Assembly: GCF_004010195.1 (NCBI RefSeq)
Contig: NC_057719.1
Coordinates: forward strand, 16,915,177 to 16,979,176
DNA from: Chiloscyllium plagiosum
Taxonomy: Eukaryota
Direction: 5' to 3'
DNA length: 64,000 nt
Part shown: positions 13,201 through 55,739 of the stretch, one piece after another
Layout of the letters: each line of letters starts with the position of its first letter
Position numbering within the stretch: position 1 is the stretch's first letter
The notes under the pieces: model-generated
Seen by the model: the letters and a program-made list of their open reading frames with translations, nothing else
The model's database searches: none
What the model was told of the DNA's origin: nothing
Program-made: the position numbers and the translations under genes

Positions 13201-13356
13201 CAAAGTTTGTGAAAAGATTTGTAGCTCGGGTGCTCGTTGTTGTGGTTCTGTTCGCCGAGCTGGGAATTTGTGTTGCAGATGTTTCGTCCCCTGTCTAGGT
13301 GACATCCTCAGTGCTTGGGAGCCTCCTGTGAAGCGCTTCTGTGATCTTTCCTCCGG
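13201..13356 (-). mobile_element. Penelope-like 3' fragment (family 3) with hammerhead motif
   Basis: Minus strand 13275-13314: gca CTGAGGA t gtcacct agac aggggac GAAA ca tc tgc. Confidence 0.65.
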
Positions 13357-14369
13357 ATTAATCCTTAGGTTGCTGTGAAAATCAAATAGTATTAATTACT
13401 CTCGGGCCCTTCTTCTCTGGATCTCTGCAGCATCCCCTTGCAAACTATAAAGCCATGATAAAGGCCTTGGAAACTAAGCAATAAACATACTCATGCAATC
13501 AATTGCTCCCTTATGCCCCACGTTACTTGTTGACACTGTTCTCATAATACCCCACAGCTCTGTTGACTGCATGTTGTATTGTCTCCAACACCTTAAAAAA
13601 AAGAGTCACACCCCAAGTCCCATAGTAGGATAACTGAGTCTTTGGGTTTTTAAAATATAAGGATTTAGCCAGTTCCTTTGAACTTGCTGCTAATTTTAAT
13701 CCTATTCATGACTTCATCCAATTTTTCAGGTTGTTTAGGCATTCTTGATTGTGTTTTTGATTTTCTTTAAGACTGCTTTACCATTTACAATTTTTCTCCA
13801 ATGCATAAAGAGGATGTGAAAGTAAATTGGGACTAAAGCTGGATAATGACAAACCCAGATGCTTTTCAAGGTCATTGAAATATGTCAAATTGTAAATTGG
13901 GGCAGAGCAAGAGTTGGGGGACGTGGGGGGGGAACCGCAGGCTGACTTTGGTGTACTTTGCTAAATTAACTGTAAAGAATCCTGTAAAGTATTAGTAAAA
14001 CTTACAACTCCTTAAGAATTGGTTAGTTTGCTAACTCATGAGTATTGCAAGCTGATAAACTCCAGTGCATTGACGCAAAGAAAACTTGAATTGGATTTAT
14101 AGCATGTCATCTGTCACTTCCTATTTAGGTGATTGGTTTCATTGATTTAGTATTTTTTTATGTATTTCTTTGGAATTTGTTAACCACCTTTTGGTTTGGA
14201 ATTTGTGAATCCTCAGCAAATTTCTGCTCATAAGGTTAGAACAATTATGTTCATATACAAATGCTGAATGTAATTATATTGCCTTCCTATGCCATTTTTA
14301 CGCAAGTGTGAATCTGTTTGTTTTAAATTTTAAAATAGCGTGCAAAGGAATTTAGTACAAGCTCATTAA

Positions 14370-14830
14370 AGAAAAGAAAGAACTTGCAATTATATCTCAT
14401 GACCTAGGATGTCTGATGCAATTTAGAGCCCAATGAAGTACGTTTGAAATGTATGTCTAAGAAATAAATGGTGAAATTTTAACTCATTCAAAACCCATCA
14501 TTACTTAGACAGTTAAGAATGACCATCGACACTATTGTAGAAAACATGGCAAAGCCTCATAAACTTCAATGAAATAAACTACCACATCATCCAATTTGGG
14601 TATGAAAACACAAAATGCTGGAAATACTCATCAGTTCAGGCAGTATCAGTGTCGAAAGAAAAGACTTCATATTTCAAATTGTCACCTTTCAGCAGAATTC
14701 TGTTTTAAGTGTTGGCAAAGGGATAAATATTGACCAGAACACAAACGAGAATTCTCCTGTTCTTCTTTGAATAATGTCATTTAATTCCAACTAAATGGGC
14801 AGATGTTCTACATTGCTTTATATTTGTATG
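14370..14830 (-). mobile_element. Decayed Deu-domain SINE with a short PLE fragment inserted near 14605-14700
   Basis: aaagaacttgcaatta..catgacctaggatgtc..ccaatgaagtac is the reverse complement of the tail seen at 43540-43625. Confidence 0.5.
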
Positions 14831-15739
14831 TTGTAAAAAAAAATGCACTTTGAGACAATTTATCCAAAATTATTCCTCCTATGATTTCATTTGAAAGATT
14901 AAAGGTTTTCGGGTCCCCAAGTGAGACTGGGAATTGAGTTTATGAGCAGGTATTAGCATGTAGCACAGTTCACTTCCTCACATGCTGTCTTTCCTTCTTA
15001 CGCCTCACTGTTCTTTTTACACTCACTTTTTGTCAAACTACTTCATTACACACTCTGTCTCTCACTCACTTACAGTCTCATTCGCTCTCTCTCTCTCTCT
15101 CTCTTTCTCACACACGCGCACACACACACACCTATCACGTTTGCGGGGAGAAGGAGCCATTTTTACAGCCATGTCAAACTCACCAGAGAGCAGAATCCAG
15201 CAGTCTCTGACAGAGCTATCCAGGGCATGAGGCAGGCAAGAAGAAAGGAGGCACATTGACTCTGGCTCATCGTAATGGGCCAATAATGGCTGTTGTTCGG
15301 AATAATGGCAGTCACTGCAGATGAATCTGTCCATGGGGATGGTCTGCATCAGATTGGCAGCAGTGGGCACTGAGTATCTCAAGATTGACAAGGTACTTGG
15401 CCCCACGTTTAGCACTTCTGAATCCTATTACACTTCACAGCCATTATTACAGGGTTGGGGGTCGGAATCCCCAAATTTCATCAGCAAACCGAATTGGAGA
15501 TCATGACCCACTGCTCAGGAAGCCTTGCTTTCAGAGCATCAAACTTCCGAATCCTCTTATTTCGAGGATTTCATTTTTATGGTCAGACTGAGATTCCTAT
15601 CATTTGCTTTTCTTGAAAATCTGGATGACCTTGACTGTCTAGCACTTGATCCTGGCTCCTGTGACATCAATCTGGGATGCTCAGTGCAACAGGTTGAAAA
15701 TACCCATGACACTGACACAAATTATATGGCATTATAAGC

Positions 15740-16545: not shown

Positions 16546-16759
16546 ACATAGGAAATCCCTGAATAGCTTCGAAAATTACACTGACAAACTAAGCTGATAC
16601 TGCCAGGACTCAATCCTCTTAGAGGAGGCATTCTCAGTACTCTGTTAAAGTATACATCTGCAAAAAGCAGGATCATTAGCAACTGTGACTTAAGAGGGTT
16701 TACAGTTACTTTCCTGGTCAATTTGTGTTGATTTAATATTTTATATTTGAATCTTTCAG

Positions 16760-16926
16760 ATCTATATTTTCTATGGAACTCGTTCCAATGCTGAGTTTGT
16801 GATACATAATGGATTTTTCTTTGATAATAATTCGCACGACAGAGTGAAAATAAAGCTGGGAGTGAGTAAAAGTGACCGTCTTTATGCTATGAAAGCAGAA
16901 GTTTTAGCTCGTGCTGGCATACCAAC
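16760..16926 (+). CDS. SETD3: SETD3 coding exon (167 nt; IYIFYGTRSNAEFVIHNGFFFDNNSHDRVKIKLGVSKSDRLYAMKAEVLARAGIPT)
   Basis: Near-identical to recalled human sequence including the IFYG tyrosine; tttcag acceptor, gtaagt donor; phase 0 to 2. Confidence 0.97.
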
Positions 16927-17544
16927 GTAAGTATTTTGAATTTTCATCCATTTCACTTCCCATTCCAAGGCCAATTGCCAACAAGTGAATTCTGCCATTT
17001 CTTCAGGAATTAATGAACAGATATTATTAATCAGCATTTGGTTGTCCAGAACACAGGTATTGGTGGAAAAATGGCACATATTGTTAAAAGTTTTTCAACT
17101 TGCACTCAACAAGGCATTTGCAATGGAAAAGGAATTTTTCTTGTATTGTTTAAAAAGGGAGTGTTGATTGGTTCACAGGTGGATTGCCGTGAAGAATGCA
17201 CCATTAACATGATGGCTACCATTTTTTAAAATTTAAATCAGCATTTTGACCCTGATAGGGCAATATCTTGATCAAAGAAATGGACCAGAGAATGGTTGCC
17301 CAAATGAATGAGAAAATGGTTGCCTACTTTGTCAAGTTTAACACATGTAAAGTGTGTCTATATTCTTTCTGCCTGCGAAGAGCAGGGTCTTGTCTCTTAA
17401 TATATACAAGATTGTCAATTGGGCATGCAGCATGGTGACCTTGCATCTGCTAGAAGCTACATATAGCAATACGCAGGGCCTTTGTTCTTTGCAGACAGAA
17501 AGAACGTGTGCACGCATCCACCTGTTTCAACTTACCAAAATAGA

Positions 17545-18143
17545 TGACAGCTATTGGAAAGACGTTACGAAACTTGAAACGGTTCAGAAAAAATTTACAA
17601 GGATGTTGCCAGAAGGATCTAACCTATAGGGAAAGGTTGAATAGGCTAGGGCTGTTTTCCCTGGAGCATTGGAGGCTGAGGAGTGACCTTATAGATATTT
17701 ATAAAATCATGAGTGGCATGGATAGGATAAATAGACAAAATCTTTTCCCTGGGTTGGGGGAATCTAAAACTAGAGGGCATTGGTTTAGGGTGAGAGGGGA
17801 AAGATACAAAAGAGACCTTAGAGGCAATGTTTTCACGCAGAGGGTGGTATGTGTCTGGAATGAGCTGCCAGAGGAAATGGTGGAGGCTGGTACAATTGCA
17901 ACATTTAACAGGCATCTGGATGGGTATATGAATAGGAAGGGTTTGGAAGGATGTGGGCCGGGTGCTGGCAGCGGAGACTAGATTGGGTTGGGATATCTGG
18001 TCGGCATGGACAAGTTGGACCAAAGGGTCTGTTTCCGTACTGTACATAGAGTCAAAGAGATGTACAGCACAGAAACAGACCCTTGGTCCAACCTGTCCAC
18101 GCCGACCAGATATCCCAACCCAATCTAGTTCAACTCTATGACT
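17545..18143 (+). mobile_element. CR1/HER1 3' fragment with an inverted 3'-UTR copy in its tail
   Basis: ORF 17544-17981 (LGLFSLE.WRLR.DLI..YKIM..WNELP); 18060-18130 is the reverse complement of 17977-18047. Confidence 0.88.
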
Positions 18144-19139: not shown

Positions 19140-19266
19140 TCAAAATGTGTGGCTTATGCCCAAAACGTCGATCCTCCTGATCCTTGGATGCTACCTGACC
19201 CGCTGTGCTTTTCCAGCGCCACATTTCCCGACTCTGAGGACTGCAGATGCTGGAGATCACTTTCTC
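19140..19266 (+). mobile_element. Short Penelope-derived insertion (family 1)
   Basis: ggcttatgcccaaaacgtcgat..ggatgctacctgacc; 15-bp direct repeat ctgctacaattaaag at 19125-19139 and 19267-19281. Confidence 0.8.
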
Positions 19267-19944
19267 CTGCTACAATTAAAGAACAAATGGGAGCAGTTCA
19301 ATGAGTTTACTATTGATTGAAATTCTCACTCACTAGCTGCATATTATCCAGAAATGATCCCTAAAGCCTTTTAAGAACTATTAGTCAGCAAAAGGTGTGT
19401 TGCATTTAGCACAACAAGAATTCTGTTCTAAGAATTTAGCAGAACACGTTTTCTTTGACAGAACTGTTCATTTGTTAAATACATTGCAACTTCGGTGTAG
19501 AAATCTAATGTACCATCACCTCAGTTTATAATGCTAATTAACAGTGAGAGCATATAAAGTGCCCTCTGCTACCCTACTCACATTCACAAACATTTTGAAT
19601 GGCTTATGAAGACAGCATGATAAAGATAGAATTGAAAGAGCGACTTAAGTGGAATCAATCATGTCTTTTCTCACCAGAGTCACATTGTTTAAAGTATCAG
19701 TGAGATAATCAAATGTAAAATAAAATGTTTTGAAAGGTGTTTTGACTTAGATGACAGTATTTTTAAGTGCTTTAAAAATAGCTGCTCAAAAATTAATTTC
19801 TGAGACTTGTTGCAGTTGAAAGCAGGTGAAAGTTTATTAACCAATTGACTTCAAATCAACACAGGGACATGAAGACTCCCCTCTCCAGAAATTTCAGCAC
19901 CACCTAAAATGGGTACGCAACATAAGAGTGTAGACAAGTTATAC

Positions 19945-20460
19945 AGTTCCTGTGGTGCAATGATAGTGTCCCTACCTATGAGCCAGGAAACCCAGGGTTC
20001 AAGTCCCATCAGTTCCAGAAGAGTGTCATAGCACATAAGAATAGGTTAATTAAAAACATGTCTGCTGACAAGTATTAGTGTTTTTTGACATAATGGTGGT
20101 GTCTTCACCTCTGATCTAGGAAGCCCAGGATTAAATTCCACTTGCTCTATTGGTGTGTAAATAACATGTTTGAATAGGTCAATTAGAAAATATCAGTAGA
20201 CAGCTTTTGGGGCCCAGATTCAAAACTCACCTAGTCAAAGGGTGTGTTATAACCTCTCTGACCAGGTTGTTTAGAAAATATATCAAATCTAATTGGTTTG
20301 ATGCTGTCTTTTCATGGGTGCAAAATATGCTGCATATGCTTAATGGTACAAGTGGATTAGGTAGTTTTCCTAGCTCTAAGCCAGAAGGCCAAGGTTCAAG
20401 TCCCACCTGCTCCAGAGATATGTCATAACATCTCTGAACAGGTTAGTCAGGTAATATCTG
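19945..20460 (+). repeat. Four direct copies of the tRNA-like SINE unit
   Basis: Units near 19950, 20090, 20210 (partial) and 20360 with a gggttcaagtccca-type B box and ..aca..tgaacaggtt..aaaatatc end. Confidence 0.72.
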
Positions 20461-20466
20461 TGTACA

Positions 20467-20684
20467 GTTGAAACTTTATTGCTGGAACCGCACAGCAGGT
20501 CAGGCAGCATCCAGGGAACAGGAGATTCGACGTTTCGGGCACAGGCCCTTCTTCAGGAAGAAGGGCCTGTGCCCGAAACGTCGAATCTCCTGTTCCCTGG
20601 ATGCTGCCTGACCTGCTGTGCGGTTCCAGCAATAAAGTTTCAACTTTGATCTCCAGCATCTGCAGACCTCACTTTCTCCTCGAA
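20467..20684. mobile_element. Young Penelope-derived palindromic insertion (family 1) with hammerhead motif
   Basis: Perfect inverted repeat 20466-20554 / 20557-20645; 14-bp TSD aatatctgtgtaca at 20453-20466 and 20685-20698. Confidence 0.9.
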
Positions 20685-21405
20685 AATATCTGTGTACAAA
20701 ACAGCTGTCAAATTTAAAGCTACTATAATTAGTGTAGTGTAGCCATAAACAATTTCTTTTCCACCTTAGTTCATGACCATTATCCTTGAATGCTGAGAAC
20801 TTCATATATGATACTTTCTACTTGGTTTAACTAAGTCTTTGACAGACCTTTTCCATCACCCAACTGAAAATAGATGCATGGAACAGAGAAGGAAGAGTGA
20901 GCAGCACTCTTCGTGGAAAAAGGAAGCAACTTTTAAAAGGTTAATGATCAGTAATCGTGAAGATAGTTTCACACGTTTTGTGCTGCCTGAGCAGGACATA
21001 CATGCTGGAAGATCAGGAAATCGACTATTCATTATCCACTCCATTCAAGTTAACATTTGTTAATACAGATGGGTAAAAACTTATTCGAACTGATGCATGA
21101 TCCTCCTTATCTAATGGTCCCACGTACAATTGGTGCACATTTATTGGGAATCATAAGGGTTGAAACTGATCTATCATTGGTGCTGCTTAATCAGAATAGG
21201 TTGTTATCAAGGAATCTTTTCATCTGTGGCCACTTGCTGTTCATTTTATTCTATCAGCTTAAAACTATTATTTAAAAATTGCTGGGTAATTTCCTGATTT
21301 TAGTTGTGTAATGACAATTCCGCTTCAATGCGGTTACATGCTTGTTGAAGCTCTTGTTGAGATCATTCTGACAGACTGACTCCAGTGTATATGTGTTTCT
21401 GTTAG

Positions 21406-21491
21406 GTCCAGTGTATTTGCCTTGCACTGCGGTGAACCTCCTATTTCGGCCCAGCTGTTGGCTTTCCTCCGTGTCTTCTGCATGAGTGAAG
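21406..21491 (+). CDS. SETD3: SETD3 coding exon (86 nt; SSVFALHCGEPPISAQLLAFLRVFCMSE)
   Basis: Matches recalled human SSVFALHFTEPPISAQLLAFLRVFCMTE; tgttag acceptor, AAG|gtgaaa donor; phase 2 to 1. Confidence 0.96.
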
Positions 21492-23339
21492 GTGAAACTT
21501 TTTCCCCATTTTTTTTTTTGTTTTTCGAAGGGGGTGGATATTAATTAAAAAGATTGTGGGTCAGTAATCCCAAAGGGCTAAAATTACTCCTTTGAACTGC
21601 AAGAGAAGAACCTCAGCTGTTTATTACAAAGCCCTAAAGGGAGATCATTCATGAGAAGTTATTTGTGACTATCTATACCAATTACTAGGTTTTGGATTTG
21701 CTGCTGATGCATGGCTTTGTGGACATTGGCCAGCATGCAATCTGCTGTGGATGTATAATGATGTTCTTGCTCACTTCTGTCTCCTCTTCCACATAATTTA
21801 TTCCAGTCATCAATGACTGTATCTTTTGCTATTTCTCAGACTGTCCTAAGTAATACTAGGTCAGCATTAGGGATGGCAAACGCTTTTATTTATTGCCTTT
21901 ACTGTAATTGTTAAAAGGCTACCTTGATTTGTCACTTCGGTGTATTGAGAACTGCGATTAATATTGTCATTTTTCCTGCAAATGTTATCTCTTTATCACC
22001 CCATCCCCAAATAAAAAGCTTTCTAGAGATTTATGCAATCCAGTCTTGTGCACCTTGATTGTTCTTTGTTTTTGACATATTGTGAGCTTTTCCTGTAAAG
22101 TTAGGCACATTAAATTTCATTGGTGAAAAGTTCTCTCTGTAATGCTTACCCCCAATGTTTCTCTTAAGATAAGTAACAATATTTATTGCATAAGTAAGGG
22201 AAGAAGTCTTTTTAAGTATTGAGCCATGATGTTCTGGACTTACTGTATGAGGCAGATTTGATAGGTCTTTTCTGGCTTGTCTGTTTGTTTTTTACTATCA
22301 AAGTGATTTGTTATTTTATGCTGTTTTTAGGCCAGTAAGCATCAGAAAGCAAGCACTTGTGTCCAAATTTATATGTCATTAACTGGTTATTCAATTCACC
22401 CCTACTTTACTGTAAGGTGATTCCATGTAGCTAGATTTTCTCAAACTTTGTCAAAGTGTCGTCTTCCACCCACTAAAGCCATGTCACCTTCTCAATTGCT
22501 TGCACAATTGGAGTTAAAGGGCATTTCTTTTCGACATGGTATTTGATGCATTTTCCAGCAATTTATGTTGGATTGTTGATGTAGAGATTTAATAACATAC
22601 ATGGTACATCATGTGAATTCAATCAGCATTCATGTAAGAGTACATACCACACTGATGATAAATGTTATGTCAATTAAACTGACAAAGATAATTAAAAGGT
22701 TGCTGTATTACAAGATCGCAGGACAAACTTGTTGATCAAATGAAAATAAAAAATGTTCTCTGCAGTATTGCTTTGCGATTTTAAAAGCAAATTTAATGAA
22801 GGAAGTGACTTTGCTGTGAAAATGTTTATTTTTTATAATGGTGTGCTTGCTATGAAAATAACTTTTTTTGTTTCTTTTGATAGACAAAGGTTAAAAGGTT
22901 ATTTAGCAGAGATACCAAAATAGTGTATAGGTAATGAATTGTTTTTGCAGCTTTGAGTTAGCTTCTCTGTATAAGCCTTCTTTTCTGCTGGAGCATGACA
23001 GCAGAACCGTGGAGGGCTCCAGCAAATGGTGGAATAATGTTCACTGCGTACTCCTTGGACCACCAGCATGTTGGTTGTTTATTCATGATTTTAAATAGGA
23101 CCTACTTAATAATTGTTTTCTCATGTTAGTGAGACAAATCATAATAGTCAAAAGTTGGAATTGTACAGTGAGCATGATTGTCAGTCATGTTGACTAACCA
23201 CTTTTCTGGATCACTTAACCAGGATATTTAATTAGTTAAATTTGTATCGTCATAAAGATCGGATCTTCATAACTTTCTTGGAGCAAACCATTCCTTATGC
23301 TTTTTCTGGGATCTTGCTATGTTCAAATTGCACAATGTA

Positions 23340-25399: not shown

Positions 25400-28270
25400 C
25401 GGCATGCAAACAGATTCTTCGGTCCAACCCAACTATGCCGACTAGGTATCCTAAAATGATCTAATCCCATTTGCCCATATCCCTGTAAACCCTTCCAATT
25501 CATGTACCCAACCAAATGCCTTTTAAATGTTATAATTGTAACTAATTCCAGAGGCTGCTCATTCCATATACGTACCACCCTATGTGTGATAAAGTTTCCC
25601 CCAGGTCCCTTTTAAATCTTTCTTCTCTCACCTTAAACTTATCCTCCTCTAGTTTTGGACTCCCCTACCCTGGAAAACAGGCCTTGGCTATTCACCCTTA
25701 CATGTTCCTCATGATTTTATAAACCACAATAACATCATCCCTCAGCCTCCCATGCCACAGGGAAAAAAGCACCAGCCTATTCAGCCTTTCCCTGTAGCTC
25801 AAACCCTCCAATCCTTATAAATCTTTTCTGAACCATTTCAAGTTTAACAACGTCCTTCCTAAAGCAGAGAGACCAGAACTGAATGCAGTATTCTAAATGT
25901 AGCCTCACCAATGTCCTGTACAGCTGTAACACAGAGTCATCAAGATGTACAGCATGGAAACAGACCCTTCGGTCCGACCTGTCCATGCCGATCAGGTATC
26001 CCAATCAAATCTAGTCCCACCTGCCAGCACCCGGCTCATACCCCTCCAAACCCTTCCTATTCATGTACCCATCCAAATGCCTCTTAAATGTTGCAATTGT
26101 ACCAGCCTCCACTACATCCTCTGGCAGCTCATTCCATACACGTACCACCCTCTGCGTGAAAAAGTTGCCCCTTAGGTCTCTTTTATATCTTTCCCCTCTC
26201 ACCCTAGACCTATGCCGTCTAGTTCTGGACTCCCCGACCCCAGGGAAAAGACTTTGTCTATTTATCCTATCCATATAGAACATAGAATAGGCCCTTCAGC
26301 ACAGCACAGAACAGGCCCTTCAGCCCACGATGTTGTGCCGACCACTGATCCTCATGTATGCACCCTCAAATTTCTGTGACCATATGCATGTCCAGTAGTC
26401 TCTTAAATGTCCCCAATGACCATGCTTCCACAACTGCTGCTGGCATCGCATTCCATGCTCTCACAACTCTGTGTAAAGAACCCGCCTCTGACATCCCTCT
26501 ATACTTTCCTCCAACCAGCATAAAACTATGACCCCTCATATTAGTCATTTCTGCCCTGGGAAATAGTCTCTGGCTATCGACTCTATTTATGCCTCTCATT
26601 ATCTTGTATACCTCAATTAGGTCCCCTCTCCTCCTCCTTTTCTCCAATGAAAAAAGTCCGAGCTCAGTCAACCTCTCTTCATAAGATAAGCCCTCCAGTC
26701 CAGGCAGCATCCTGGTAAACCTCCTCTGAACCCTCTCCAAAGCATCCACATCTTTCCTATAACAGGGCGACCAGAACTGGACGCAGTATTCCAAGTGCAG
26801 TCTAACCAAAGTTTTATANNNNNNNNNNNNNNNNNNNNNNNNNNNNNNNNNNNNNNNNNNNNNNNNNNNNNNNNNNNNNNNNNNNNNNNNNNNNNNNNNN
26901 NNNNNNNNNNNNNNNNNNNNNNNNNNNNNNNNNNNNNNNNNNNNNNNNNNNNNNNNNNNNNNNNNNNNNNNNNNNNNNNNNNNNNNNNNNNNNNNNNNNN
27001 NNNNNNNNNNNNNNNNNNNNNNNNNNNNNNNNNNNNNNNNNNNNNNNNNNNNNNNNNNNNNNNNNNNNNNNNNNNNNNNNNNNNNNNNNNNNNNNNNNNN
27101 NNNNNNNNNNNNNNNNNNNNNNNNNNNNNNNNNNNNNNNNNNNNNNNNNNNNNNNNNNNNNNNNNNNNNNNNNNNNNNNNNNNNNNNNNNNNNNNNNNNN
27201 NNNNNNNNNNNNNNNNNNNNNNNNNNNNNNNNNNNNNNNNNNNNNNNNNNNNNNNNNNNNNNNNNNNNNNNNNNNNNNNNNNNNNNNNNNNNNNNNNNNN
27301 NNNNNNNNNNNNNNNNNNNNNNNNNNNNNNNNNNNNNNNNNNNNNNNNNNNNNNNNNNNNNNNNNNNNNNNNNNNNNNNNNNNNNNNNNNNNNNNNNNNN
27401 NNNNNNNNNNNNNNNNNNNNNNNNNNNNNNNNNNNNNNNNNNNNNNNNNNNNNNNNNNNNNNNNNNNNNCTCATCCAAGTCATTAATAAAAACTACAAAC
27501 AGTAGAGGCCCAAGGACTGAGCCTGTGGAACACCACTCACCACAGACTTCCAGGCAGAATACTTTCCTTCTACTACCACTCGCTGTCTTCTGTTGGCCAG
27601 CCAATTCTGTATCCAGACAGCTAAGTTCCCCTGTATCCCATTCCTCCTAACCTTCTGAATGAGCCTACCATGGGGAACCTTATCAAATGTAACCTTATTT
27701 GCATTTCATCTTCGATAAATCTTTAAGTACTAGCATGCGCCTCATAATTTTCTAAACCTCTATAAGGTCACCCCCTCCGCCTCCGCGCTCCAGGGGAAAA
27801 CAGCCCCAGCCTGTTCAGCCTCTCCCTATAGCTTAGATCCTCCAACCCTGGCAACATCCTTGTAAATCTTTTCTGAACCCTTTCAAGTTTCACAACATCT
27901 TTCCAATAGCAAGGAGACCAGAATTGCACGCAATATTCCAACAGTATGATGTCCAAACTCCTAAACGCAGTGCACTTATCAATGAACGTAAACATCCAAA
28001 CACATTTTTCACCACTGTGTCTACATGTGACTCCACTTCCAAGGAAATATGAACCTGCACCCACTAGATCTCTTTTTTTGGCAACATTCAACCAGGCTGT
28101 ACCATTAACTTTGTAAGTTCTGCTCTGATATGCCTTATCAAAATGCAAAACTCCACATTTATCTAAATTAAATTCCATCGGCCCATCTGACCAAGGTATT
28201 GTTGTAATCTGAGATATTGAGATATTTCAGTGTCCGTCATGTCACCAATTTTGGTGTCATCTGAAAACTT
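25400..28270 (-). mobile_element. Stack of three CR1 copies (about 25400-25930; 25932-26275 resuming near 27735-28270; 26276-27690 inserted in the second), spanning an assembly gap
   Basis: Three separate CR1 3' ends on the minus strand (about 25410, 25935, 26278); ORFs 26011-26283, 26366-27604 and 27768-28178 have CR1 motifs. Confidence 0.85.
26819..27469. other. Assembly gap (N run) inside a CR1
   Basis: Directly visible. Confidence 1.
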
Positions 28271-28279
28271 GAATGGTGG

Positions 28280-28900: not shown

Positions 28901-30302
28901 CTTGAAACAATATTGTCAGTACATAAGCTAAGTGAAAATAGAAAATGCCAGAAATGCCCTGTAAATTGGTTAGCTTTTGCAAGATAAAGAAGGGCAAATA
29001 TTTGGTTGGAATGTTATGATCTCCGCTAATGTTATTACTTACAAATCAGATCCCAGAATAAAATCTGGATTGATAAATCAGATTTTTTTTTATTATTATG
29101 GTGGTCTTTTGCTGAAATATAAACACACAAGGCTACAGATTTGTTTTAACAATAAACTTCTGCTTTTTTACACAAAAGAAAAACAAATGAAAATAGACAA
29201 AGCCAAGCTATCTAAATATAACATATTTTGGATATTTCAAAACACACGGCAAAATATCTAATCCCCAAAACTAGTTCTTTACAGTTCCTCAAAACAATTT
29301 CTCCATTACATCTGTAGATTTTGATTTTAACTTTTTTTCTCAGTTCTTGCCCTGTGAGCACTTTTCCCTGGAATATTCGCACAACTAAGATCTCGGGCCT
29401 TTGCAGTCTTCCAATGAGCTACAGAGTTCTAACCAAACACTGCTGGTCTGGAAATTTCACAAACCAATCTCTTTTGCTGAGATAATGTATTCCCTACCTG
29501 CTCTGAACAATCATTTTTCTAGAAGAAACAATACTTTCATCTGATTCCAGTCAAGATATTTTCAAACTACCGAAAATCTTTCCAAGATCCAGATTTTTCT
29601 AATTAAAAATAACAGTTTGATTATTCTAAATAAAAGCGAGCTAATTTCTTTCTGTGTTTTCTCTATCCTATCATATACCCCATCAATGAACTTTCTTGAT
29701 CACTCCAAGAGGCCTTGTAGTGACATGCTCCCTGACACATACTGTTTTAAAATCTTTTTTCTTCACAAAAATAGAGCAACACTCAAATACCACTAGTTCC
29801 AAATCCAAACTTTTCAAAATGATATATTAACATAAAAATCGCAGACCTATCATCTCTGGACACCTTTGGATTTATAAGTGACTCAGTAAAAGTGGGTTTA
29901 CAAGTTTATATAACATCCTTTTTTAAAAAAGCAAATGAAACAGTTCAGAATTTGTGTCCTAAAAATACTATTCGCCTGAAGCTGATAATACGGTGATGGA
30001 GGAGAAAATCTGAGAGGAGGTCAGCACAAAGTAGCCTGAGAATATGCTTGTAGCCATTAACATGCAGCTCAGAAATATGAGCTTGCCTGTCTTGTCAGGT
30101 GGGCAACTGAGTGTTCATTGAAGCACACAGAAGGAAGTGGGGAGAAACATTTAAAGAACAAAGCAGGGGATCAAAGAGTGTAAACTGCTGCTTTCTTTTC
30201 AAATTGTAATTGGCTGAAGTTACCTCTGTACTGAAATCAGGCCCGAGGGTCTTTGAAATATCAAATTTTGAATGCACTTAATTATAATCTATGTAATTAC
30301 AG

Positions 30303-38921: not shown

Positions 38922-38953
<32 letters not shown>

Positions 38954-39310
38954 GTGCAATGGTGATCGCCTGTAATGTGACATGAACCCAAGGTCCCGGT
39001 TGAAGCCCTCCCTATGGTGATTTCACCCAGGCTACATCAAGCTCCTGTACTCAAACCCTCTTGCATTATAAACCAACAGATCTTTTGTCTTACGAGCAGC
39101 ATGCTGCCCCTACATGTTTTATTTCAGTAACCAATATGCAAGATCATCCAGGTCCCTTTGTACATGACATTTCTAAATCTATCACTAATTAGATAATATT
39201 GCCATTCTGTTTTTTTTCCAACTGATGTGGACATTTTCACACTTATCCACATTATACTGTCTTGGCCACTCATAAGCCTTCTAAAATAACTTGTCTAAAT
39301 CTCCCTGAAA
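37872..39310 (-). mobile_element. Old CR1 3' portion split by a Penelope fragment
   Basis: acatagaaaataggtggaggagtagg tail; ORF 38019-38243 FFSQRMVNLWN. Confidence 0.7.
38390..39017 (-). mobile_element. Penelope-like element 3' end (family 2): ORF C-terminus, (CA)n and hammerhead motif
   Basis: Minus strand 38960-39017 reads HREGFNRDLGFMSHY, like the end of PLE GIY-YIG ORFs; hammerhead motif at 38440-38474. Confidence 0.8.
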
Positions 39311-39760
39311 CTTTTAAAGGAGTATACACGTAACAAAGTGATGGGTAAATCCTAAGTGTTCCAATGTGCAGAAACATCAGTGCTTGAATTGAATTAAATT
39401 GAATTGAATTGAATTTATTGTCACATGTACCGAGCACAGTGAAAATATTTGTCTTGCGAGCAATACAGACAGATCACATAGTTAAGTAGCATAGATAAGT
39501 AATAATAGGTAAACAGTAACAAAAACAAAAACACAGGTACAGGCGAATGTTAAGAGTTTGTGAGTCCATTTAGTATTCTAACAACAATAGGATAGAAACT
39601 GTTTTGAAACCGGCTTTACATCTGCCACAAGACTTAAATATAAAATAGGAACTGAGTCACAAAGTTGTCAGGTCTCTTGGTGCACTTATTGATTAAAGGT
39701 TGTAGTTGGATCTTCAGGCCCTAACCAATCCTTGTATAGGTTTACCAGGATCTCACTTGA

Positions 39761-40120
39761 TTAGGTTAGATTCCCTACAGTGTGGAAACAGGCCCTTCGG
39801 CCCAACAAGTCCACACTGACCCTCCAAAGAGCAAGCCACCCCCCTCTGACTAATGCACCTAATACCATAGGCAATTTAACATGGCCAATTCACCTGACCT
39901 GCACATCTTTGGACTGTGGGAGGAAACCGGAGCACCCGGAGGAAACCCACGCAGACACTGGGAGATGAAGGGCTTTTGCCCGAAACGTCGATTTCTCTGC
40001 TCCTCGGATGCTGCCTGAACTGCTTTGCTTTTCCAGCATCTGCAGTCATTGTTTTTCCCTACGGGGAGAATGTGCAAACTCCACACAGACAGTCACCTGA
40101 GGCTGGAATTGAACCTGGGA
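39761..40120 (-). mobile_element. HE1-like V-SINE interrupted by a PLE fragment (39964-40062)
   Basis: SINE sequence stops at gacactggga and resumes at ggggagaatgtgcaaactcc; insert begins gatgaagggcttttgcccgaaacgtcg. Confidence 0.85.
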
Positions 40121-40122
40121 CG

Positions 40123-40345
40123 ACACACTCTCCCAGTGTCTGCGTGGGCTTCCTCCGGGTGCTCCGGTTTCCTCCTACAGTCCAGAGGTGTGCAGGTCAG
40201 TGAATTGGCCATGTTAAATTGCCCATAGTGTTCGGTGCATTCGATAGAGGGGGGTGGGTTGCTCTTCAGAGGGTCGGTGTGGACTTGTTGGGCTGAAGGG
40301 CCTGTTTCCACGCTGTAGAGAATCTAACCCAACCAAACCTAATCA
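40123..40345 (+). mobile_element. HE1-like V-SINE 3' half, inverted partner of the preceding copy
   Basis: gtgtctgcgtgggcttcctccgggtgctccgg..aagggcctgtttccac. Confidence 0.85.
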
Positions 40346-40757
40346 AGTGAGATCCTGGTAATGCCTAGATCTATACGTCAGTTGATTACTCCAAAAACAA
40401 AGAGTATTGCATATGCTGGAAATCAGAAATAAAAACTGAAGCTGCAGGAAATTCTCAGTAGATCAGGCAGCATCTGCTGAAGAGAAGCTGAATTCTGGTT
40501 AATTACTTTATCTGAACATTGGCCCAATTTGTTGGATATGGAGAGAGACATCTGATGCTGCCTGACCTGCCATGCTTTTCCAGCACCACACTCCCGTCAC
40601 CTTCATACTAAAACCAATTTCATCAAATGTAACAAGCGAACAAACTTAAGTTGTTTTCAATCCGTTATTAAGAAAACATGATCTGCTTCTTACTGTCTCT
40701 CCAAAGCAGTCTGAAGCTCTTATTAAAGGACAACTGAGTGATTACTGGTACAAGGCT

Positions 40758-41173
40758 AGGCAAAAGTGAGGACTGCAGATGCTGGAAACCAGAGTTTAGA
40801 TCAGTGTGGTGCTGGAAAAGCACAGCAGGTCAGGCAGCATCCGAGGAGCAGGAAAATCAACATTTTGGGCAAAAGCCCTTCATCAGGAATAGAGGCAGGG
40901 AGCCTCCAGGGTGGAGAGATAAGGGTGGTGGTGGTGGTGGGGGGTGGTGGGGCGCGGGGCTGAAGAGAATGGGGAGAAGGTAGCAAAGAGTACAATAGGT
41001 GAATGGGGGTAGGGATGGAGGTGATAGATCAGAGAGGAGGGTGGAAACGGATAGGTGGGAAGGGAGATTGGCAGGTAGTACAGGTCATGAGGACAGTCCT
41101 TCCCTGCCTCCATTCCTGATGAAGGGCTTTTGCCTGAAACATCAATTTTCCTGCTCCTCGGATGCTGCCTGAC
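40758..41173. mobile_element. Penelope-derived insertion (family 1) with inverted terminal segment
   Basis: About 40828-40901 inverted against about 41100-41175; 13-bp TSD ctggtacaaggct at 40745-40757 and 41174-41186. Confidence 0.85.
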
Positions 41174-45984: not shown

Positions 45985-46360
45985 TAAAGAAAAAAAAACT
46001 GCAGATGCTGGAATCCAAAGTAGACAAGCAGGGGGCTGGAAGAACATAGCAAGCCAGGCAGCATCAGGAGGTGGAATAGTCGACATTTTGGGTTTAACCC
46101 TTCTTCAGGAATAGAAGTTGGGGGCGGGGAGCTGCAGATAAAGGGTGGAAGGGTTCTGGGTGGGGAGAGGGGTGGAGTGGTGAGGCAGTGATAGGTGAAC
46201 ACAGGTAAATACAACCTGGAAGGTTGATAGGAGAAATGAATCCGGTTGGTAGCTGGAAGGAAGGGTCATTCGAAGGGATGGAAGGGAGAAGGCAGGGCTA
46301 AAAGGGGAGTCAGGGGATGGGTGGGAAGGTTATTTGAAATTGGAGAATTTAATGTTGAGT
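45985..46360 (-). mobile_element. Penelope-like 3' end inserted in an old CR1 (about 45750-46520)
   Basis: Minus strand ends an ORF with LNIKFSNFK* (46329-46360), then pyrimidine-rich UTR and ttcctgaagaagggttaaacccaaaatgtcg decayed hammerhead. Confidence 0.75.
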
Positions 46361-46840
46361 TTTTCACACTCTAGGCTTATGTAAAAATGTGACCTGATAT
46401 TAGATTGCCCCACAAGAGGAAATATCCACTGCATTTATTTTGTCAATCCCTTTCAGCATCTTATACACCTCAATTAGAGCTCCCCTCATTCTTTTAAACT
46501 CTAGAGTATATAATAATTCTAGAGAATTATTGAAGGACCACATTCAGGAAATCCACTGCAAAGCTGGTAGCAATGTCTGGGTGAGAAATAGGCACTTCAG
46601 AGCTGTCCTCTTAATGAGAATGTCACAAAGATGTTTGAATTAACTACCCCTTAGTGTCCAACATCAATATTCCAACACTTCAGAAGCATTCCTGCGTTCA
46701 TAAGCTTCAGTCTACAGAAATACAAATAATAGTGTATCCCATTAACAAACTAAGTTCAAAGCAATTCTGATTTTATCCATTGACTTCCTAGAAACTGCAA
46801 TATGAGTAACATTAGAATCAATCACCACATTCTCTGATTG

Positions 46841-46954
46841 ATTTGGAGATGCTGGTGTTAGACTGGGGTGTACAAAGTTTAAAAATTACACACCAGGTTA
46901 TAGTCCAACAGGGCACTAGCTTTCGGAGCGCCGCTCCTTCATCAGTTCGTTGTG
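46841..46954 (-). mobile_element. Short Penelope-derived insertion (family 2)
   Basis: Homologous to 38390-38475; 12-bp TSD attctctgattg at 46829-46840 and 46955-46966; hammerhead motif 46914-46947. Confidence 0.82.
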
Positions 46955-49244: not shown

Positions 49245-50216
49245 TTTTGTCATTTACATGAATGATTTGGATGCGAGCATAAGAGGTACAGTTAGTAAGT
49301 TTGCAGATGACACCAAAATTGGAGGTGTAGTGGACAGCGAAGAGGGTTACCTCAAATTACAACAGGATCTGGACCAGATGGACCAATGGGCTGAGAAGTG
49401 GCAGATGGAGTTTAATTCAGATAAATGCAAGGTGCTGCATTTTGGGAAAGCAAATCTTAGCAGGACTTATACACTTAATGGTAAGGTCCTAGGGAGTGTT
49501 GCTGAACAAAGTGACATTGGAGTGCAGGTTCATAGCTCCTTGAAAGTGGAGTCAAGGGTAGATAGGATAGTGAAGAAGGCATTTGGTATGCTTTCCTTTA
49601 TTGGTCAGAGTATGGAGTACAGGAGTTGAGAGATCATGTTGCGGCTGTACAGGACATTGGTTAGGCCACTGTTGGAATATTGCGTGCAATTCTGGTCTCC
49701 TTCCTATCGGAAAGACGGTGTGAAACTTGAAAGGGTTCAGAAAAGATTTACAAGGATGTTGCCAGGCTTGGAGGATTTGAGCTATAGGAAGAGGCTGAAC
49801 ATGCTGGGCTGTTTTCCCTGGAGCATCGGAGGCTGAGGGGTGACCTTATAGAGGTTTACAAAATTATGAGAGGCTTGGATAGGGTAAATAGGCAAAGCCT
49901 TTTCCCTGGGGTCGAGGAGTCCAGAACTAGAGGGCATAGGTTTAGGGTGAGAGGGAAAAGATATAAAAGAGACCTACAGGGCAACTCTTTCACACAGAGG
50001 GTGGAACGTGTATGGAATGAGCTGCCAAAGGAAGTGGTGGAGGCTGGTACAATTGCAACATTTATGAGGCATTTGGATGGTTATATGAATAGGAAAGGTT
50101 TGGAGGGATATGGGCTGGGTGCTAGCAGTTGGGACTAGATTGGGTTGGGATATCTGGTCGGTATGGACAGGTTGGACCGAAGGGTCTGTTTCCATGCTGT
50201 ACATCTCTATGACTCT
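49245..50216 (+). mobile_element. CR1/HER1 LINE, 5'-truncated, fairly young
   Basis: ORFs 49258-50138 (SKFADDTKIGG..WQMEFN..LVRPLLEYCVQFWSP..WNELP); tail ctctatgactct. Confidence 0.92.
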
Positions 50217-52959
50217 TTAATGCTGATTTTCATGACTTCAGACTTGAACAACTGAAGAAAAAAATGACTTTAGTGAATGGGGAATGCTTGGCTTGGCCTT
50301 TTGGAATGTTGGGTAAGTGGGAAAGAAGATTGGCACTTGAAACATTGGTCAGATTGTACCCATGGGGCAGTCTGCACCCATGTTATTTTCCTGTTTTCTT
50401 AGCTTATTTTCATTTTCTATACTACCTGCCTTGTTTCCAAGCCACCATAGCTAAAAGCATGTTTGCTTTGTCCCATTAGTTTGTTTCATTATGCCTCCTA
50501 TTTTCAAATTTAGTAATTCTTAAACCATTAAGCTGTCCTGTTTTCTTCCATGACCCTGTATATGCAGTTGTGTGTGTTTCTCCTGCTTTTCATTCTATTC
50601 TTCTTCAAATTCTGCTTTTATTGTTACTGTTCCAGTTCTGACTGAGTCTGTACAGCTGAAGCATTAATGGGTGATTACAGCTGATGACTGACCTGCTCCC
50701 AGCACCTGCAGATTTTTTGTTTTGCTTTTTGCACTCAGATGAGAGGACAGTGTCCTCACTATCTGATCGGTTCAGATTGCTGACCTGAAAATCTGGATGA
50801 ACTGGAGTTGGAAAACACAATCTCAATTCTGAGCAGGCTCAAGCACACACCTTGAAAATGACCACTATTTGACACTAATTAGTAAGCTCATTCACTGTGG
50901 TCTTCAAGATAGATGGTGCAGAAGATCACATGGGCTTCAGTAATATGTGCTGATCTGAGTTTGAGGTTAAGGAGCATTTACTGGGTCAGTTTTACTTCAA
51001 TTCTACTTCAATCTGAATCTGAGTTAGAAAATCTTTCTCCTTGTTGGTCCTGGCTAACAGCCTTTATTAATAAGCATCAGAATCCTACACATGGAAGAGG
51101 GGAGAAACAAACAAAACATTGCTCTTTTGAGAATTTAAAACTACATTTTTGGAAATAGCATATTTTACCTCCTAAGCTGATCTTCAACCCTGCGTTAAAA
51201 GGGTCAGCACTTAGAAAGTGAATTTGCTATTCATTCAGCATATGCACCTTAGGCATGCACTGTGTGCAAAGATTTAACCCTCCTGTTCTGAACACCTTCA
51301 ATTTTAAGTCCATGGTGCATATGGATGCTGAATGACCTTCACATTTATACTACTGCATCCAATGTAACTCAAGCATCAACCGAATATAAACTACTTTTTT
51401 ACATATTCAAAAGCTCGCACATTTCTGACTTAAGGTTGTATAAGTTCCATGTACTGAAAAGAAATAAAATGGCATTTAATGAATATGTTTAATGGGTCAC
51501 TGTTTCTCTGTTAATGATGGAGAATGTGGTGGGCCAGTTAATGTGCCTACCTCCCAGTTGGATGGTTGTGTTGTTCTAGTCCCAGGACTGTCCACAGCTC
51601 AGTTTTGCCTGTGACTACTTGGCAGTGAATTTTGCTGGTGGTAAGTGATGAAGTGCACCACAATGGTGGAACAATGCCTCTGAGAAAAGAGGGGAAAAAA
51701 AACATGGCCTAGTTGGCTCACACTACTGCAAGCACATCTCTTGTCAACGACTTGCAGAGCAGCACTGACATCTGTCAAGAAATAGTCTGAGCTCTGTTTT
51801 CTTCCAGTCCTCCTGGCTGAGAGAAGCTAAATTATGCCGAATGACTTGGAAATACATATGTATGTATTGAGCTCAGAGAATAGGACTGTTCTCACAGGAT
51901 TGAGTTTGAGTGGACCTGAACCTCTGACACTTGTATTATTGCAGTACGAACAATATCTATGCAAGCCCTATTATCAATGCAGTATTCAGTTATTCTTCTA
52001 CACCTCTCTCTGTATAACCTTTACTGTGATAATTCAATGGTGTCACAAAAGCTTTTCTGCCAATGCACTATCCATCTGAGTAGCCTAACAGCGAAATCGT
52101 ACGGGGTCTCGAACATATTTTCATAGTCTCCAAATGAAGTTTGCATAATAATATCAAATCTGAATATTCATTTGTATAGTACTGTGTTGGTATTGAATGA
52201 GTCTGCAGTTTTTTTTTATATATACAGCCTGAAGGATCTCCATTAATGTAATTAGGTTTCTTTTCCACTTCCGATTTTTTTGTCTTCCTCTGCCTTGTGT
52301 ACTGCTCCTGGGCACCTTCCTCATCATGTTTGAATCAAATTGGCACGTAATGATTTTATTTGGCCTATACAAATCCCTGAACACCAGCAAAATGGCCTCC
52401 TCAGTTGCTGAGTTTGTGGTGATTAGCCTGCCACATATTCTGTAGAAGAGCCAGTATACAATATTGATATACAATTGGTAATATACAATGTTTATGTCGC
52501 TCCAAGAATAAATAAGGGATATGTACTGAGACCCAGTGTTTATGGTTGGGAGTACAGTGGTCTTGAGCTGTCCTGAAACTGTTTAGTGAGAATGACTCTC
52601 GCTGTGGTAGTTCAAAGCTTGCCACTCAATAAATGGGGTTTGTTTAAAGGAATTTGGGATTTCGTGTGTTTTCCATTCCTTGATCCATTGGATGCCAGCT
52701 GGTAGATTTAGCTTCTGGATGGTTGTTCTGAAAGGAACTGATAGATGGAAGGTGGGCAAATGGGTGAGTTGAGCAGGTCAACGTAGAATAGTTAAGTAGT
52801 ATGCACCATAGATGGTTTCAGCCAGCTCATAGGTATCTATCAGTCAACAGTTCGGTGGAAAGTAATATTTATGAAGACAGGAAGCCAGGGGAGCACAATG
52901 GATCAACATTCTCATTCAAATCAAGTCTCTTTACAGAGGAAAACAGTCCTGCTGGCAAG

Positions 52960-54895
52960 CTGAATTCCAAATCCCAGGACCTGATCAGGTGTAGTTCAGA
53001 AATTTGAGGGAAGTTAGGGAAGTGATTGCTGGGTCTCTTGTTGAGATTTTTGTATCATCAATAGCTATGGGTAAGATGCCAGATGACTGGAGGGTGACGA
53101 ATGTGGTGCCATTATTTTAAAAAATGTAGTAAGGAAATGCCAGGAAACTAAAGACTACTGAACATAACATCAGTGGTGAGTAAGTTGTTGGACAGGATTT
53201 GAGGGACTGGAGTTACATGTATTTGGAAGGCCAAGGGCTGATTAGTTATAGTCAACATAGCTTTGTGCATGGGAAATCATGCCTCACTAAATTGATTGAC
53301 CTTTTGAAGAAATGACAAAGCAGATTGATGAAGACGGAGAGGTGGACATTTCAGCAAGGCATTCAACAATGTTCTGCATGGTGGGCTGATTGGCAAGGTT
53401 AGATCCCATAGAATACAAGAAGACTAAAATAGCTATTTGGATACAAAATTGGCTTGGAGGTAGGAAGCACAGAGTGATGCTGAAGGATTGTTTTTCGGAC
53501 TGGAGGCCTGTGAACAGCAGTGTGCTGCAAGGTTTGGTGCAGGGTTCACTGTTTTGTGTCATAAATATAAATGATTTGGATGTGAATATAGGAGGAATGG
53601 TTGATACCATCCAGGACAAAGCAGCCCACTTGATTGGTATTGAATCCACAAACATCCACTCCCTACACTACCGACGCTCAGTAGCAGCAATGTGTACAAG
53701 ATTCTCTGTAGAAATTCACCAAAGATCTTCAGACAGCACCTTCCAAATGCATGACCAACCATCTAGAAGGACAAGAGCAACAGTATTTTTGGGAACACCA
53801 CCACCTTCAGGTTCCCCTCCAAGCCACTCACCATCCTGACTTGGAAATATGTTGCCGTTCCTTCATTGTTGCTGGGTCCAAATCCTGGAATTCCCTCCCT
53901 AATGGCATTGTGGATCAGCCCACAGCGGGTGGAGTGCAGCCGTTCAAGAAGGCAGCTCACCACCAACTTCTCAAGGTCAATTGGATGGCAATAAATGCGA
54001 GCCAGCCCAGTGACACCCACATCCCACTAAAAAAATGAATACGTTTTTTAAAATAAATGGACCAGTGGACCAGGGGGGTGGCAGATGGAGTTTAATTTAG
54101 ATAAATGTGAGATGTAGTATTTTGGTAAGACAAATCAGGGTAAGACTTATATAGTTAATGGTAAGGTCCTGGGCAGTATGTCCGAACAAAAAGATCTTAG
54201 GTTCAACTTCATAGTTTCTTGAAGGTGGAATCACAGGTAGACAGGGTAGTGAAGAAGGCATTAGGTGTGCTTAAGTTTATTGGTCAATGCATTGAATCTA
54301 AGAGTTGGGATGTCATGTTGCTGCTATTTGGCAAATTGATTAGGCCACTTTTGGAATACTACATTCAATTCTGGTCTCCTTGCTATAGGAAAGATATTGT
54401 TAAACATACGAATTTGAAATCAGAAAAGATTTCAAAAGGAATTTGACAGGTTTGAGATTTAGGGAGAGGCTGAATTGGCTTGGACTATTTTTCCTGGAGC
54501 ATCAGGGACTGAGGGATGACATTAAACAGGTTTATAAGATCGTGAGGTTTATGTATAGGGTGAATGGCCAAGGTCTTTTTTTCCCCAACGTAGGAAAGTC
54601 CAAAATTAGAGGGTATAGGTTTAAAGTGAGAGGGGAAAGATTTAAAAGGGACCTGAGGGGCAACCTTTTCACGCAGAGGCTGTGCATGTATGGAATGACC
54701 TGCCAGAGGAAGTGGTGCAAACTGGTAAAATTACATTATTTAAAAGGCACCTGGATGGGTATATGAATAGGAACAGTTCAGAGGGCTATGTACTGAAGGC
54801 TAGCAAATGGGAACTAGATTAATTTTGGATATCTGGTCAGCATGGCCAAGTTGCACCGACGAGTCTGTTTCTGTGTTGTACAATTCTTATGAAAA
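52960..54895 (+). mobile_element. CR1 LINE RT region to 3' end, interrupted by LINE family B
   Basis: WIQNWLGGRK.RV, INDLDVNIGGMV before the break at about 53601; resumes at about 54060 with WQMEFN. Confidence 0.85.
53602..54040 (+). mobile_element. LINE family B 3' end
   Basis: DTIQDKAAHLIG..SKSWNSLP coding and tail cacccacatcccactaaaaaaa. Confidence 0.78.
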
Positions 54896-54939
54896 TGATT
54901 CAATGAAATTTTTTGATCCCAGAGGTTAACATAGGCCAG

Positions 54940-55739
54940 GAGAAAGTGAGGACTGCAGATGCTGGAGTACCAGAGTTGAAAAATGTGGTGCTGGAAAAAC
55001 ACAGCAGGCCAGGCAGCATCCGAGGAGCAGGAGAATCGACGTTTTGGGCATAAGCCCTTCTTCAGGAATGAGGATGGTGTGCCAAGCGGGCTGAGATAAA
55101 AGGTAAGGGGGAGGNNNNNNNNNNNNNNNNNNNNNNNNNNNNNNNNNNNNNNNNNNNNNNNNNNNNNNNNNNNNNNNNNNNNNNNNNNNNNNNNNNNNNN
55201 NNNNNNNNNNNNNNNNNNNNNNNNNNNNNNNNNNNNNNNNNNNNNNNNNNNNNNNNNNNNNNNNNNNNNNNNNNNNNNNNNNNNNNNNNNNNNNNNNNNN
55301 NNNNNNNNNNNNNNNNNNNNNNNNNNNNNNNNNNNNNNNNNNNNNNNNNNNNNNNNNNNNNNNNNNNNNNNNNNNNNNNNNNNNNNNNNNNNNNNNNNNN
55401 NNNNNNNNNNNNNNNNNNNNNNNNNNNNNNNNNNNNNNNNNNNNNNNNNNNNNNNNNNNNNNNNNNNNNNNNNNNNNNNNNNNNNNNNNNNNNNNNNNNN
55501 NNNNNNNNNNNNNNNNNNNNNNNNNNNNNNNNNNNNNNNNNNNNNNNNNNNNNNNTCCTTCCACCTATCGCATTCCCAGCGCCCTCCCCCAAATTCCCTC
55601 CCCCCTATTTTTTATCTCAGCCCACTTGGCACATCAGCCTCATTCCTGAAGAAGGACTTACGCCCGAAACGTCGATTCTCCTGCTCCTCGGATGCTGCCT
55701 GGCCTGCTGTGTTTTTCCAGCACCACATTTTTCAACTCT
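54940..55739. mobile_element. Penelope-derived inverted insertion (family 1) spanning a gap
   Basis: About 54972-55114 inverted against about 55597-55740; TSD gttaacataggccag (54925-54939) and gttaacaaaggccag (55740-55754). Confidence 0.82.
55115..55555. other. Assembly gap (N run)
   Basis: Directly visible. Confidence 1.

Follow-up and report, generated by a model that had tools for sequence, protein, structure and literature searches.

Stubs of three Penelope-like element families with minimal hammerhead motifs in the SETD3 region of Chiloscyllium plagiosum: a probable origin from twin-primed leader cDNAs

Minimal hammerhead ribozymes with a core that lacks helix III and with an extra base between positions 9 and 10.1 were described in the pseudo-LTRs (pLTRs; LTR, long terminal repeat) of metazoan Penelope-like elements (PLEs) by Cervera and De la Pena (2014, PMC4209133). 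We detected the same motif class in a 64,000-nucleotide stretch of the Chiloscyllium plagiosum genome (contig NC_057719.1, positions 16,915,177 to 16,979,176; "the window"), which contains the SETD3 gene. The likeness to that description extends to the G10.1-C11.1 pair, the palindromic positions 15.2-16.2, the pLTR location, the prevalence of single truncated copies and the dual motifs on opposite strands 100-700 bp apart. In its available text that study names teleost, coelacanth, frog and reptile PLEs, not those of cartilaginous fish, and contains neither a mapping of copy ends nor evidence that the motif cleaves in vivo. We suggest, with a probability of roughly 0.62, that the motifs belong to the pLTRs of three PLE families, that the window copies are likely inert insertion by-products, and that twin-primed complementary DNAs (cDNAs) of the 5' leader of the element RNA explain the short and inverted ones.

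The insertion units of endonuclease-positive (EN+) PLEs, as presented in the available parts of PMC8557442, PMC3846280 and PMC8969392, show head-to-head inversion, a 30-40-bp tail on one arm only, target-site duplications (TSDs), partial tandems and the Neptune and Poseidon domain orders, all of which resemble our data. The EN+ PLE hallmarks found here are a pLTR contiguous with an open reading frame (ORF) for reverse transcriptase (RT) plus a GIY-YIG domain at its C-terminus, the 30-40-bp tail on one end, an inverted 5' arm and a TSD. The motif class, the pLTR location, the inverted arm and the one-sided tail are already published (PMC4209133, PMC8557442, PMC3846280, PMC8969392, within their available text). 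Unlike the printed units, for which inversion is ascribed to self-priming or left undefined, the copies described here are mostly 100-220 bp long, their 5' ends cluster at the hammerhead edge and their junctions occur in both polarities. The Poseidon element PAc of Anolis was studied in vitro (Frangieh et al. 2024, PMC11167929); according to the available text, two internal RT start sites bound its tail, both target strands are extended, a dimer is predicted, hammerhead cleavage is not needed for insertion and no RNA reads ended at the cut site. Inverted arms and 5' run-off were not derived in that text, and families 1 and 2 described here are putatively Neptune-type, with the ORF of family 1 starting shortly past the tail. 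The copy ends therefore bear on the origin of the PLE inverted repeats and tails, for which the accessible sources give an undefined cycle (PMC8557442) or self-priming (PMC3846280), and on in vivo cleavage by metazoan minimal hammerheads, for which they give no in vivo evidence (PMC4209133) or no reads at the cut (PMC11167929). No prior report of 5' run-off, of a two-polarity junction or of U6 junctions for these families was found in the literature searched, with Repbase, Dfam, most subscription journals and supplements outside the search.

Two proposals of the first-pass annotation, made from the letters alone, are borne out, namely descent from PLEs and a minimal type I layout of the hammerheads, as all three families tie to PLE reading frames. 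That annotation had tied its interpretation beforehand to a link with RT or GIY-YIG ORFs, and genomic relatives of the copies do run into such frames, each of the three motifs lying in the pLTR of an autonomous PLE. In longer relatives the family-1 ORF ends in the pLTR and codes for the C-terminus of RT together with a linker rich in Cys and a GIY-YIG domain that exceeds the Pfam cut-off; the RT motifs GVAMG and YIDD occur in loci that contain family-1 ends. The family-2 ORF is similar to it (31% identity over 211 amino acids, E 5e-25), and its last codons are present in the long window copy at 38387-39019. The family-3 ORF (32% identity to family 1 over 56 amino acids, E 1e-5) ends inside the hammerhead, with the stop codon in stem II, and a DKG-bearing RT piece adjoins family 3 in locus L310. 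Pfam gave nothing useful for five of the six ORF pieces: only family 1 matched, and families 2 and 3 are linked by their similarity to family 1. The Cys-rich, zinc-finger-like linker was recognized by eye in families 1 and 2 and not in family 3; on this linker, and not on a tree, rest the provisional clade labels (Neptune for families 1 and 2, Poseidon for family 3). Assembly gaps interrupt the 4-kb candidate L312 and other long loci, and no full-length copy free of breaks was obtained. Exact 30-mer matches in the genome numbered 22,164 for family 1, 30,571 for family 2 and 4,991 for family 3; these counts represent arms and miss diverged copies. In locus L002 a young family-1 hairpin lies within an arm of a family-2 fold-back, that is, PLE stubs are nested.

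The three main motifs of the window were found letter for letter (Table 1). A strict descriptor returned exactly these three, compared with a mean of 0.03 (maximum 1) in 100 shuffles, and a descriptor with stem II of at least 3 bp gave 324 matches over 328 loci, which had been selected for carrying the repeats, compared with 0, 0, 0, 1 and 0 in five shuffles. The Rfam scan of the window (E up to 5) gave no match to a hammerhead model and 10 weak unrelated matches; Rfam has no model of the minimal motifs. The conserved core CUGANGA ... GAAA ... UH with stems I and II is present in the three main copies and not in the four relatives named with them, which are all degenerate: GAAA became AAAA with loss of G12 at 55035-55069 (-), stem I is broken and the tetramer reads ACAT at 41112-41146 (+), stem II has a mismatch at 55642-55678 (+) and stem I is broken at 46914-46947 (-). 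The remnants at 55035 and 55642, formerly listed as separate copies, belong to a single inverted insertion, in which each forms one arm and which has a 13-bp duplication containing 1 mismatch, and 41112 is likewise the inverted arm of the insertion at ~40758-41173, the other arm of which (40886) also lost G12. The "ttc" context given for family 1 was created by the inversion junction; stem I of the element itself is AUUC/GAAU.

The extra base after A9, the G10.1-C11.1 pair and the palindromic helix III remnant are all present, except for the palindrome of the window's family-3 copy. Its ACAT is a decay of ACGT; the two tetramers are the two commonest variants of the family (22 ACGT and 8 ACAT). 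Family-3 stem II contains an A.G mismatch. In family 3 and its relatives, 88% of the stem cells are paired and 2 of 10 pairs show double changes, with a covariation of 0.353 (reached by 1 of 500 shuffles), in an alignment of only 6 related rows. When the families are compared with one another, 3 of 3 pairs of stem I carry double changes, in an alignment whose register was off for family 2 and in which one pair was mis-set, and within family 1 the stem is constant and the loop varies.

For family 1, ends were mapped on the first 100 matches listed for a 30-mer close to the 3' end, all of them on one contig, and the family-1 arm counts below refer to this sample. The 3' ends form two discrete groups ~36 nt apart, corresponding to the known tail. 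The 5' ends pile up at the hammerhead edge: 54 of the 100 arms end at -6..+2 from hammerhead C3, a density of 6.0 per nt compared with 0.55 downstream and 0.09 upstream, and so do 25 of the 46 unpaired arms. Genome-wide, 5,205 family-1 matches just upstream of the hammerhead as opposed to 22,164 downstream are consistent with this end mapping. Ribozyme cleavage as the source of the 5' ends was rejected, since only 1 of the 100 arms ends within 1 nt of the cut site. In family 2, 16 of 30 arms end at -12..+4, with a sharp edge at -12..-8, and the 3' ends are again bimodal. The family-1 ATG follows the tail by ~32 nt (locus L275), and the hammerhead and tail are on this ground the 5' leader of the RNA. 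We infer a transcription start just 5' of the hammerhead, whose family-1 edge resembles an initiator consensus. Drosophila Penelope, in the available text of PMC2377424, has an internal promoter in its pLTR. The first-pass annotation had left a choice between a retrozyme-like family and 5'-truncated 3' ends, and neither option accounts for every copy. The second holds for the family-3 copy and the long family-2 copy, which are ordinary 3' ends with 5' truncation. For the family-1 and the short family-2 copies, derivation from the element RNA's 5' leader is the better reading.

Inverted pairs carry exactly one tailed arm in 27 of 27 cases in family 1 (p ~6e-9 if the arms were independent) and in 5 of 5 cases in family 2. 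The family-1 fold-back of the window at 20467 consists of a tail-less arm, a 2-nt loop (20555-20556) inside the hammerhead core, a tailed arm and the ~36-bp tail; its arms are perfect over 89 bp, and a 14-bp TSD stands at 20453-20466 and 20685-20698. This junction has 266 exact matches in the genome. In 31 hairpins of the type, the TSD was 13-17 bp in 31 of 31, and the polarity of the 2-nt loop relative to the tail was divided 17 to 13, with 1 unclassified. The window's junction sits within a continuum of other junctions, many of which contain untemplated letters and no palindrome. A miniature inverted-repeat transposable element, or another fixed palindromic family copied as a unit, was considered for this fold-back and rejected on account of both polarities and this continuum.

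Self-priming, in which one cDNA or antisense template would fold back at a junction palindrome and be copied into the inverted arm, with the tail set by endonuclease resolution, was put forward for Adineta PLEs from junction palindromes (PMC3846280, available text). At the recurrent junction the hammerhead core does contain an imperfect palindrome, and of the 10 substitutions in the 31 hairpins 1 is mirrored and 9 are one-sided. A single snap-back, however, cannot yield both polarities, because a cDNA begun at the tail-less site cannot template the tail. The unpaired arms that end at the same place without any fold-back, and the junctions with untemplated letters and no palindrome, also argue against self-priming, which we consider improbable. 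A rare variant found in both arms of two hairpins with different junctions counts in favour of twin priming. Long family-1 fold-backs with three junction types (435, 440 and 492 bp; L086, L158, L320, L324, L325, L327, L328) have a common upstream flank, which exceeds 200 bp in L320; one master locus seems to have been re-copied with its neighbouring DNA.

Cleavage itself may have left a different trace. The genome was screened for the 3' terminus of U6 at a distance of up to 30 nt from the family-1 motif, with 31 offsets allowed, and in 4 of 4 matches (L358-L361) the U6 T run was joined exactly to the first base after the predicted cut. Rfam confirmed U6 in two of these chimeras, and the other two keep only a short U6 end; structures and flanks differ among the four. 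Hammerhead cleavage leaves a 5'-OH end, and Lunse et al. are said to have described cleavage of minimal hammerheads as dimers. The fusion of U6 at the predicted scissile bond is indirect evidence of cleavage in the germ line, since RtcB joins U6 to RNAs with 5'-OH ends (PMC6789731, available text). On these genomic junctions, the hammerhead likely cuts in living germ-line cells, with most templates left uncleaved. The chimeras resemble the U6/LINE-1 chimeras formed via RtcB (Moldovan et al. 2019, PMC6789731; LINE, long interspersed nuclear element), in which, according to the available text, U6 ending in five T is joined to retroelement RNA with a would-be 5'-OH; here, unlike there, U6 is joined to a PLE, with the predicted scissile bond as the fixed point of joining. 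In L361 the U6 is duplicated and another U6 lies on the opposite strand, and L359 and L360 contain an inverted PLE arm.

In the copying mechanism that we propose, the element RNA would begin just 5' of the hammerhead, probably at the transcription start, and the RT-endonuclease would nick both DNA strands ~14 bp apart. Priming of two cDNAs would take place inside the 5' leader, at two internal start sites that lie ~90 and 127 nt downstream, shortly ahead of the ORF ATG, and each cDNA would run off the RNA 5' end. A single cDNA would give a solo stub; two cDNAs joined end to end, possibly by annealing at the imperfect palindrome of the core, would give a head-to-head hairpin, the centre of which could be set by either strand (flip or flop). 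The template would mostly be uncleaved RNA. Of the full-length or tandem transcripts, the ribozyme would probably cut the smaller part, acting as a dimer, with the help of protein or both, and the resulting 5'-OH ends might at times be ligated to U6. Template jumps in tandem arrays also depart from -3 to -7 (L281, L288, L295, L298, L313, L315). We put at even odds the broader proposal that the stubs, tens of thousands in number, record the PLE cycle as a whole: RNA start at the hammerhead 5' edge, dimer-primed synthesis of two cDNAs on opposite strands at the tail ends, run-off and joining into inverted ends, and germ-line cutting according to the U6 fusions. The pattern predicts an RNA start at -4 to -6, a dependence of the hairpins on two nicks, and 5'-OH ends after GUC.

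Several observations weigh against twin-primed copying. Family 3 has no 5' pile-up (1 of 30 arms at -12..+4); its search pattern overlaps the tail-less end and samples tailed arms only, so it is uninformative on tail asymmetry. The check for a cap-derived G in six solo copies with extra letters found C in 3, G in 2 and A in 1 before the A, with one clean TSD+G, and many arms include the templated C or more. RNA reads from one 2026 run (a poly-A single-cell library, of which the species may differ) showed no start or end pile-up on either strand; of the 1,113 reads, on both strands, 93% continue into unrelated sequence, and a second run gave none. We take this result as no evidence for or against the start site or cleavage. 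None of the sequence records listed as holding the repeat is recorded as RNA. The U6 chimeras are only four, come from an older family-1-related subfamily, and include one with a clear TSD. The rare variant mentioned above occurs in one arm only of two further hairpins, and some long fold-backs appear to have been re-copied as units, so that not every hairpin was made anew. The assembly is gapped, and at a perfect palindrome the assembling software could have turned the centre round or mirrored a variant; this worry is countered by the one-sided substitutions and by the longer recurrent fold-backs, which keep one polarity (L321-L324, 4 of 4; L086/L158/L325/L327, 4 of 4; L326/L328, 2 of 2).

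The genome also contains tandem derivatives. Family-1 matches that continue past the tail into the element body number 374, compared with the 22,164 arm matches, and the majority of 30 that were inspected are short tandems in which hammerhead and tail are followed by 40-150 nt of body and then by a return into the pLTR. Among the first 100 matches listed, one 224-bp junction was met at 8 dispersed loci; a ~320-bp unit is recurrent as well. These 224- and 320-bp units, visibly derived from the PLE pLTR and 5' body, resemble the non-LTR retrozymes of Li, Clavereau and Pollet (2026, bioRxiv 10.64898/2026.07.22.740005), reported in the available text as PLE derivatives in vertebrates including one chondrichthyan. 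By their layout the tandem units would fit the non-LTR retrozyme definition, and a dimer could form there in cis. Units of 194, 224 and 320 bp from the family-1 pLTR and 5' body were seen in L313 (G000:C8:24157000-24159500), L315, L316-L319, L276/277 and L300/301. The recurrent units, together with the long fold-backs that recur with a fixed junction, fixed polarity and common flank, could be taken to mean that the short copies are a self-propagating non-autonomous family, like short interspersed nuclear elements (SINEs) or retrozymes, spread from short masters with a unit defined by ribozyme cleavage. We give this explanation a small chance: matches past the tail are few relative to the arms, the stubs end at the hammerhead 5' edge instead of the cut site, and the copies in the window occur as monomers or hairpins, unlike the published tandems. 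Masters may supply part of the template RNA, yet the stubs are not thereby mobile. No tandem unit lies in the window, and no window copy, solo or inverted, shows the tandem hammerhead-bearing units of non-LTR retrozymes.

The 5' pile-up could also reflect RT drop-off at a folded or protein-bound hammerhead in the 3' pLTR, in which case all copies would be plain 5'-truncated 3' ends. The family-1 peak (-4/-3) does coincide with the 5' edge of stem I, and the cap check gave no clear G. But in family 2 the edge is already at -12..-8 and stem I starts only at -3, a pile-up is missing in family 3 despite its equivalent hammerhead, and RT usually stalls when entering a structure rather than after leaving one. 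We regard drop-off as slightly less probable still than the two preceding explanations. Twin-primed copying of the leader remains our preferred explanation for the family-1 and short family-2 stubs.

A working ribozyme role of the intronic copies towards SETD3 RNA is hardly credible: of the copies named in the annotation only those at 13275 and 20526 lie within SETD3 introns, and a role in RNA processing is very unlikely because both are antisense to the gene, the SETD3 strand carries only a broken family-1 core, the hairpin is favoured and the family-3 palindrome is lost, and the older copies decay at G12 (4 of 8 listed family-1-type remnants). Either strand of the family-1 insertion folds into the 89-bp hairpin, ~50 kcal/mol more stable than the hammerhead fold (-196.9 compared with -147.0 kcal/mol when constrained to the hammerhead). 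Function on SETD3 RNA was rejected on the antisense orientation, and the description "ribozyme-bearing" holds for the motif layout and overstates function, the window copies being antisense to SETD3, buried in hairpins or mutated. The thousands of perfect 90-bp hairpins in the genome, some of them intronic, are a possible source of double-stranded RNA.

Table 1. PLE-derived insertions, hammerhead motifs and the host gene in the window
Feature	Coordinates	Strand	Remarks
SETD3 coding region	10113-34717	+	open stretches 10113-10289, 11981-12094, 16751-16927, 21380-21541, 30272-30529, 34247-34717 bear exons
Family-3 (Poseidon-type PLE, provisional) 5'-truncated 3' end	13199-13356	-	SETD3 intron, antisense; last ORF codons, stop in hammerhead stem II
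Minimal hammerhead motif, family 3	13275-13314	-	helix III palindrome lost (ACAT for ACGT)
Older family-1 stub, truncated inside hammerhead	19140-19268	+	TSD-flanked, SETD3 intron
Family-1 (Neptune-type PLE, provisional) fold-back insertion, 218 bp	20467-20684		SETD3 intron
Minimal hammerhead motif, family 1	20526-20559	-	inside 89-bp hairpin; core on + (SETD3) strand broken by junction
Family-2 (Neptune-type PLE, provisional) 5'-truncated 3' end, ~630 bp	38387-39019	-	starts in last endonuclease-ORF codons; tail-less; no clear TSD
Minimal hammerhead motif, family 2	38440-38474	-	single monomer; sole intact, non-buried motif among window motifs checked
Family-1-related stub, truncated inside hammerhead core	39964-40065	+	inserted in another repeat
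Older family-1-related head-to-head insertion	40758-41173		remnants 40886 (-), 41112-41146 (+); 13-bp TSD
Family-2 short solo copy, 115 bp	46840-46954	-	tailed, 11-bp TSD; starts 9 nt before hammerhead core; stem I broken
Older family-1 head-to-head insertion	54938-55739		remnants 55035-55069 (-), 55642-55678 (+); one tailed, one tail-less arm

The SETD3 assignment is supported by the stretch 16751-16927, which matches solved SETD3 (E 2e-32). The long family-2 copy sits downstream of the last SETD3 coding stretch and is too long for the name "mini-element" given to it. TSDs, claimed for the copies in general, flank the insertions at 20467-20684, 40758-41173, 46840-46954 and 54938-55739; the long family-2 copy has no clear one, and that of family 3 is only imperfect (by eye). 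The insertion at 54938 contains an assembly gap, and its 13-bp TSD has 1 mismatch.

A decayed hammerhead of a fourth family with a different stem II lies at 56895-56945 (-), with related stubs near 7567, 14616 and 40443. More old family-1-like stubs were seen at 46000-46115 (-), which lost G12, and at 40554-40595. A dispersed repeat family, presumably SINE-like, occurs at 11206-11428, 12108-12331, 39753-40336 and 60323-60558, and its inverted pair at 39757-40336 contains the 39964 stub. The main repeat class of the window is LINE RT 3' fragments, which we take to be CR1/L2-like (705-1755, 17551-18057, 25700-28200, 49400-50236, 54078-54887 and 58050-58400).

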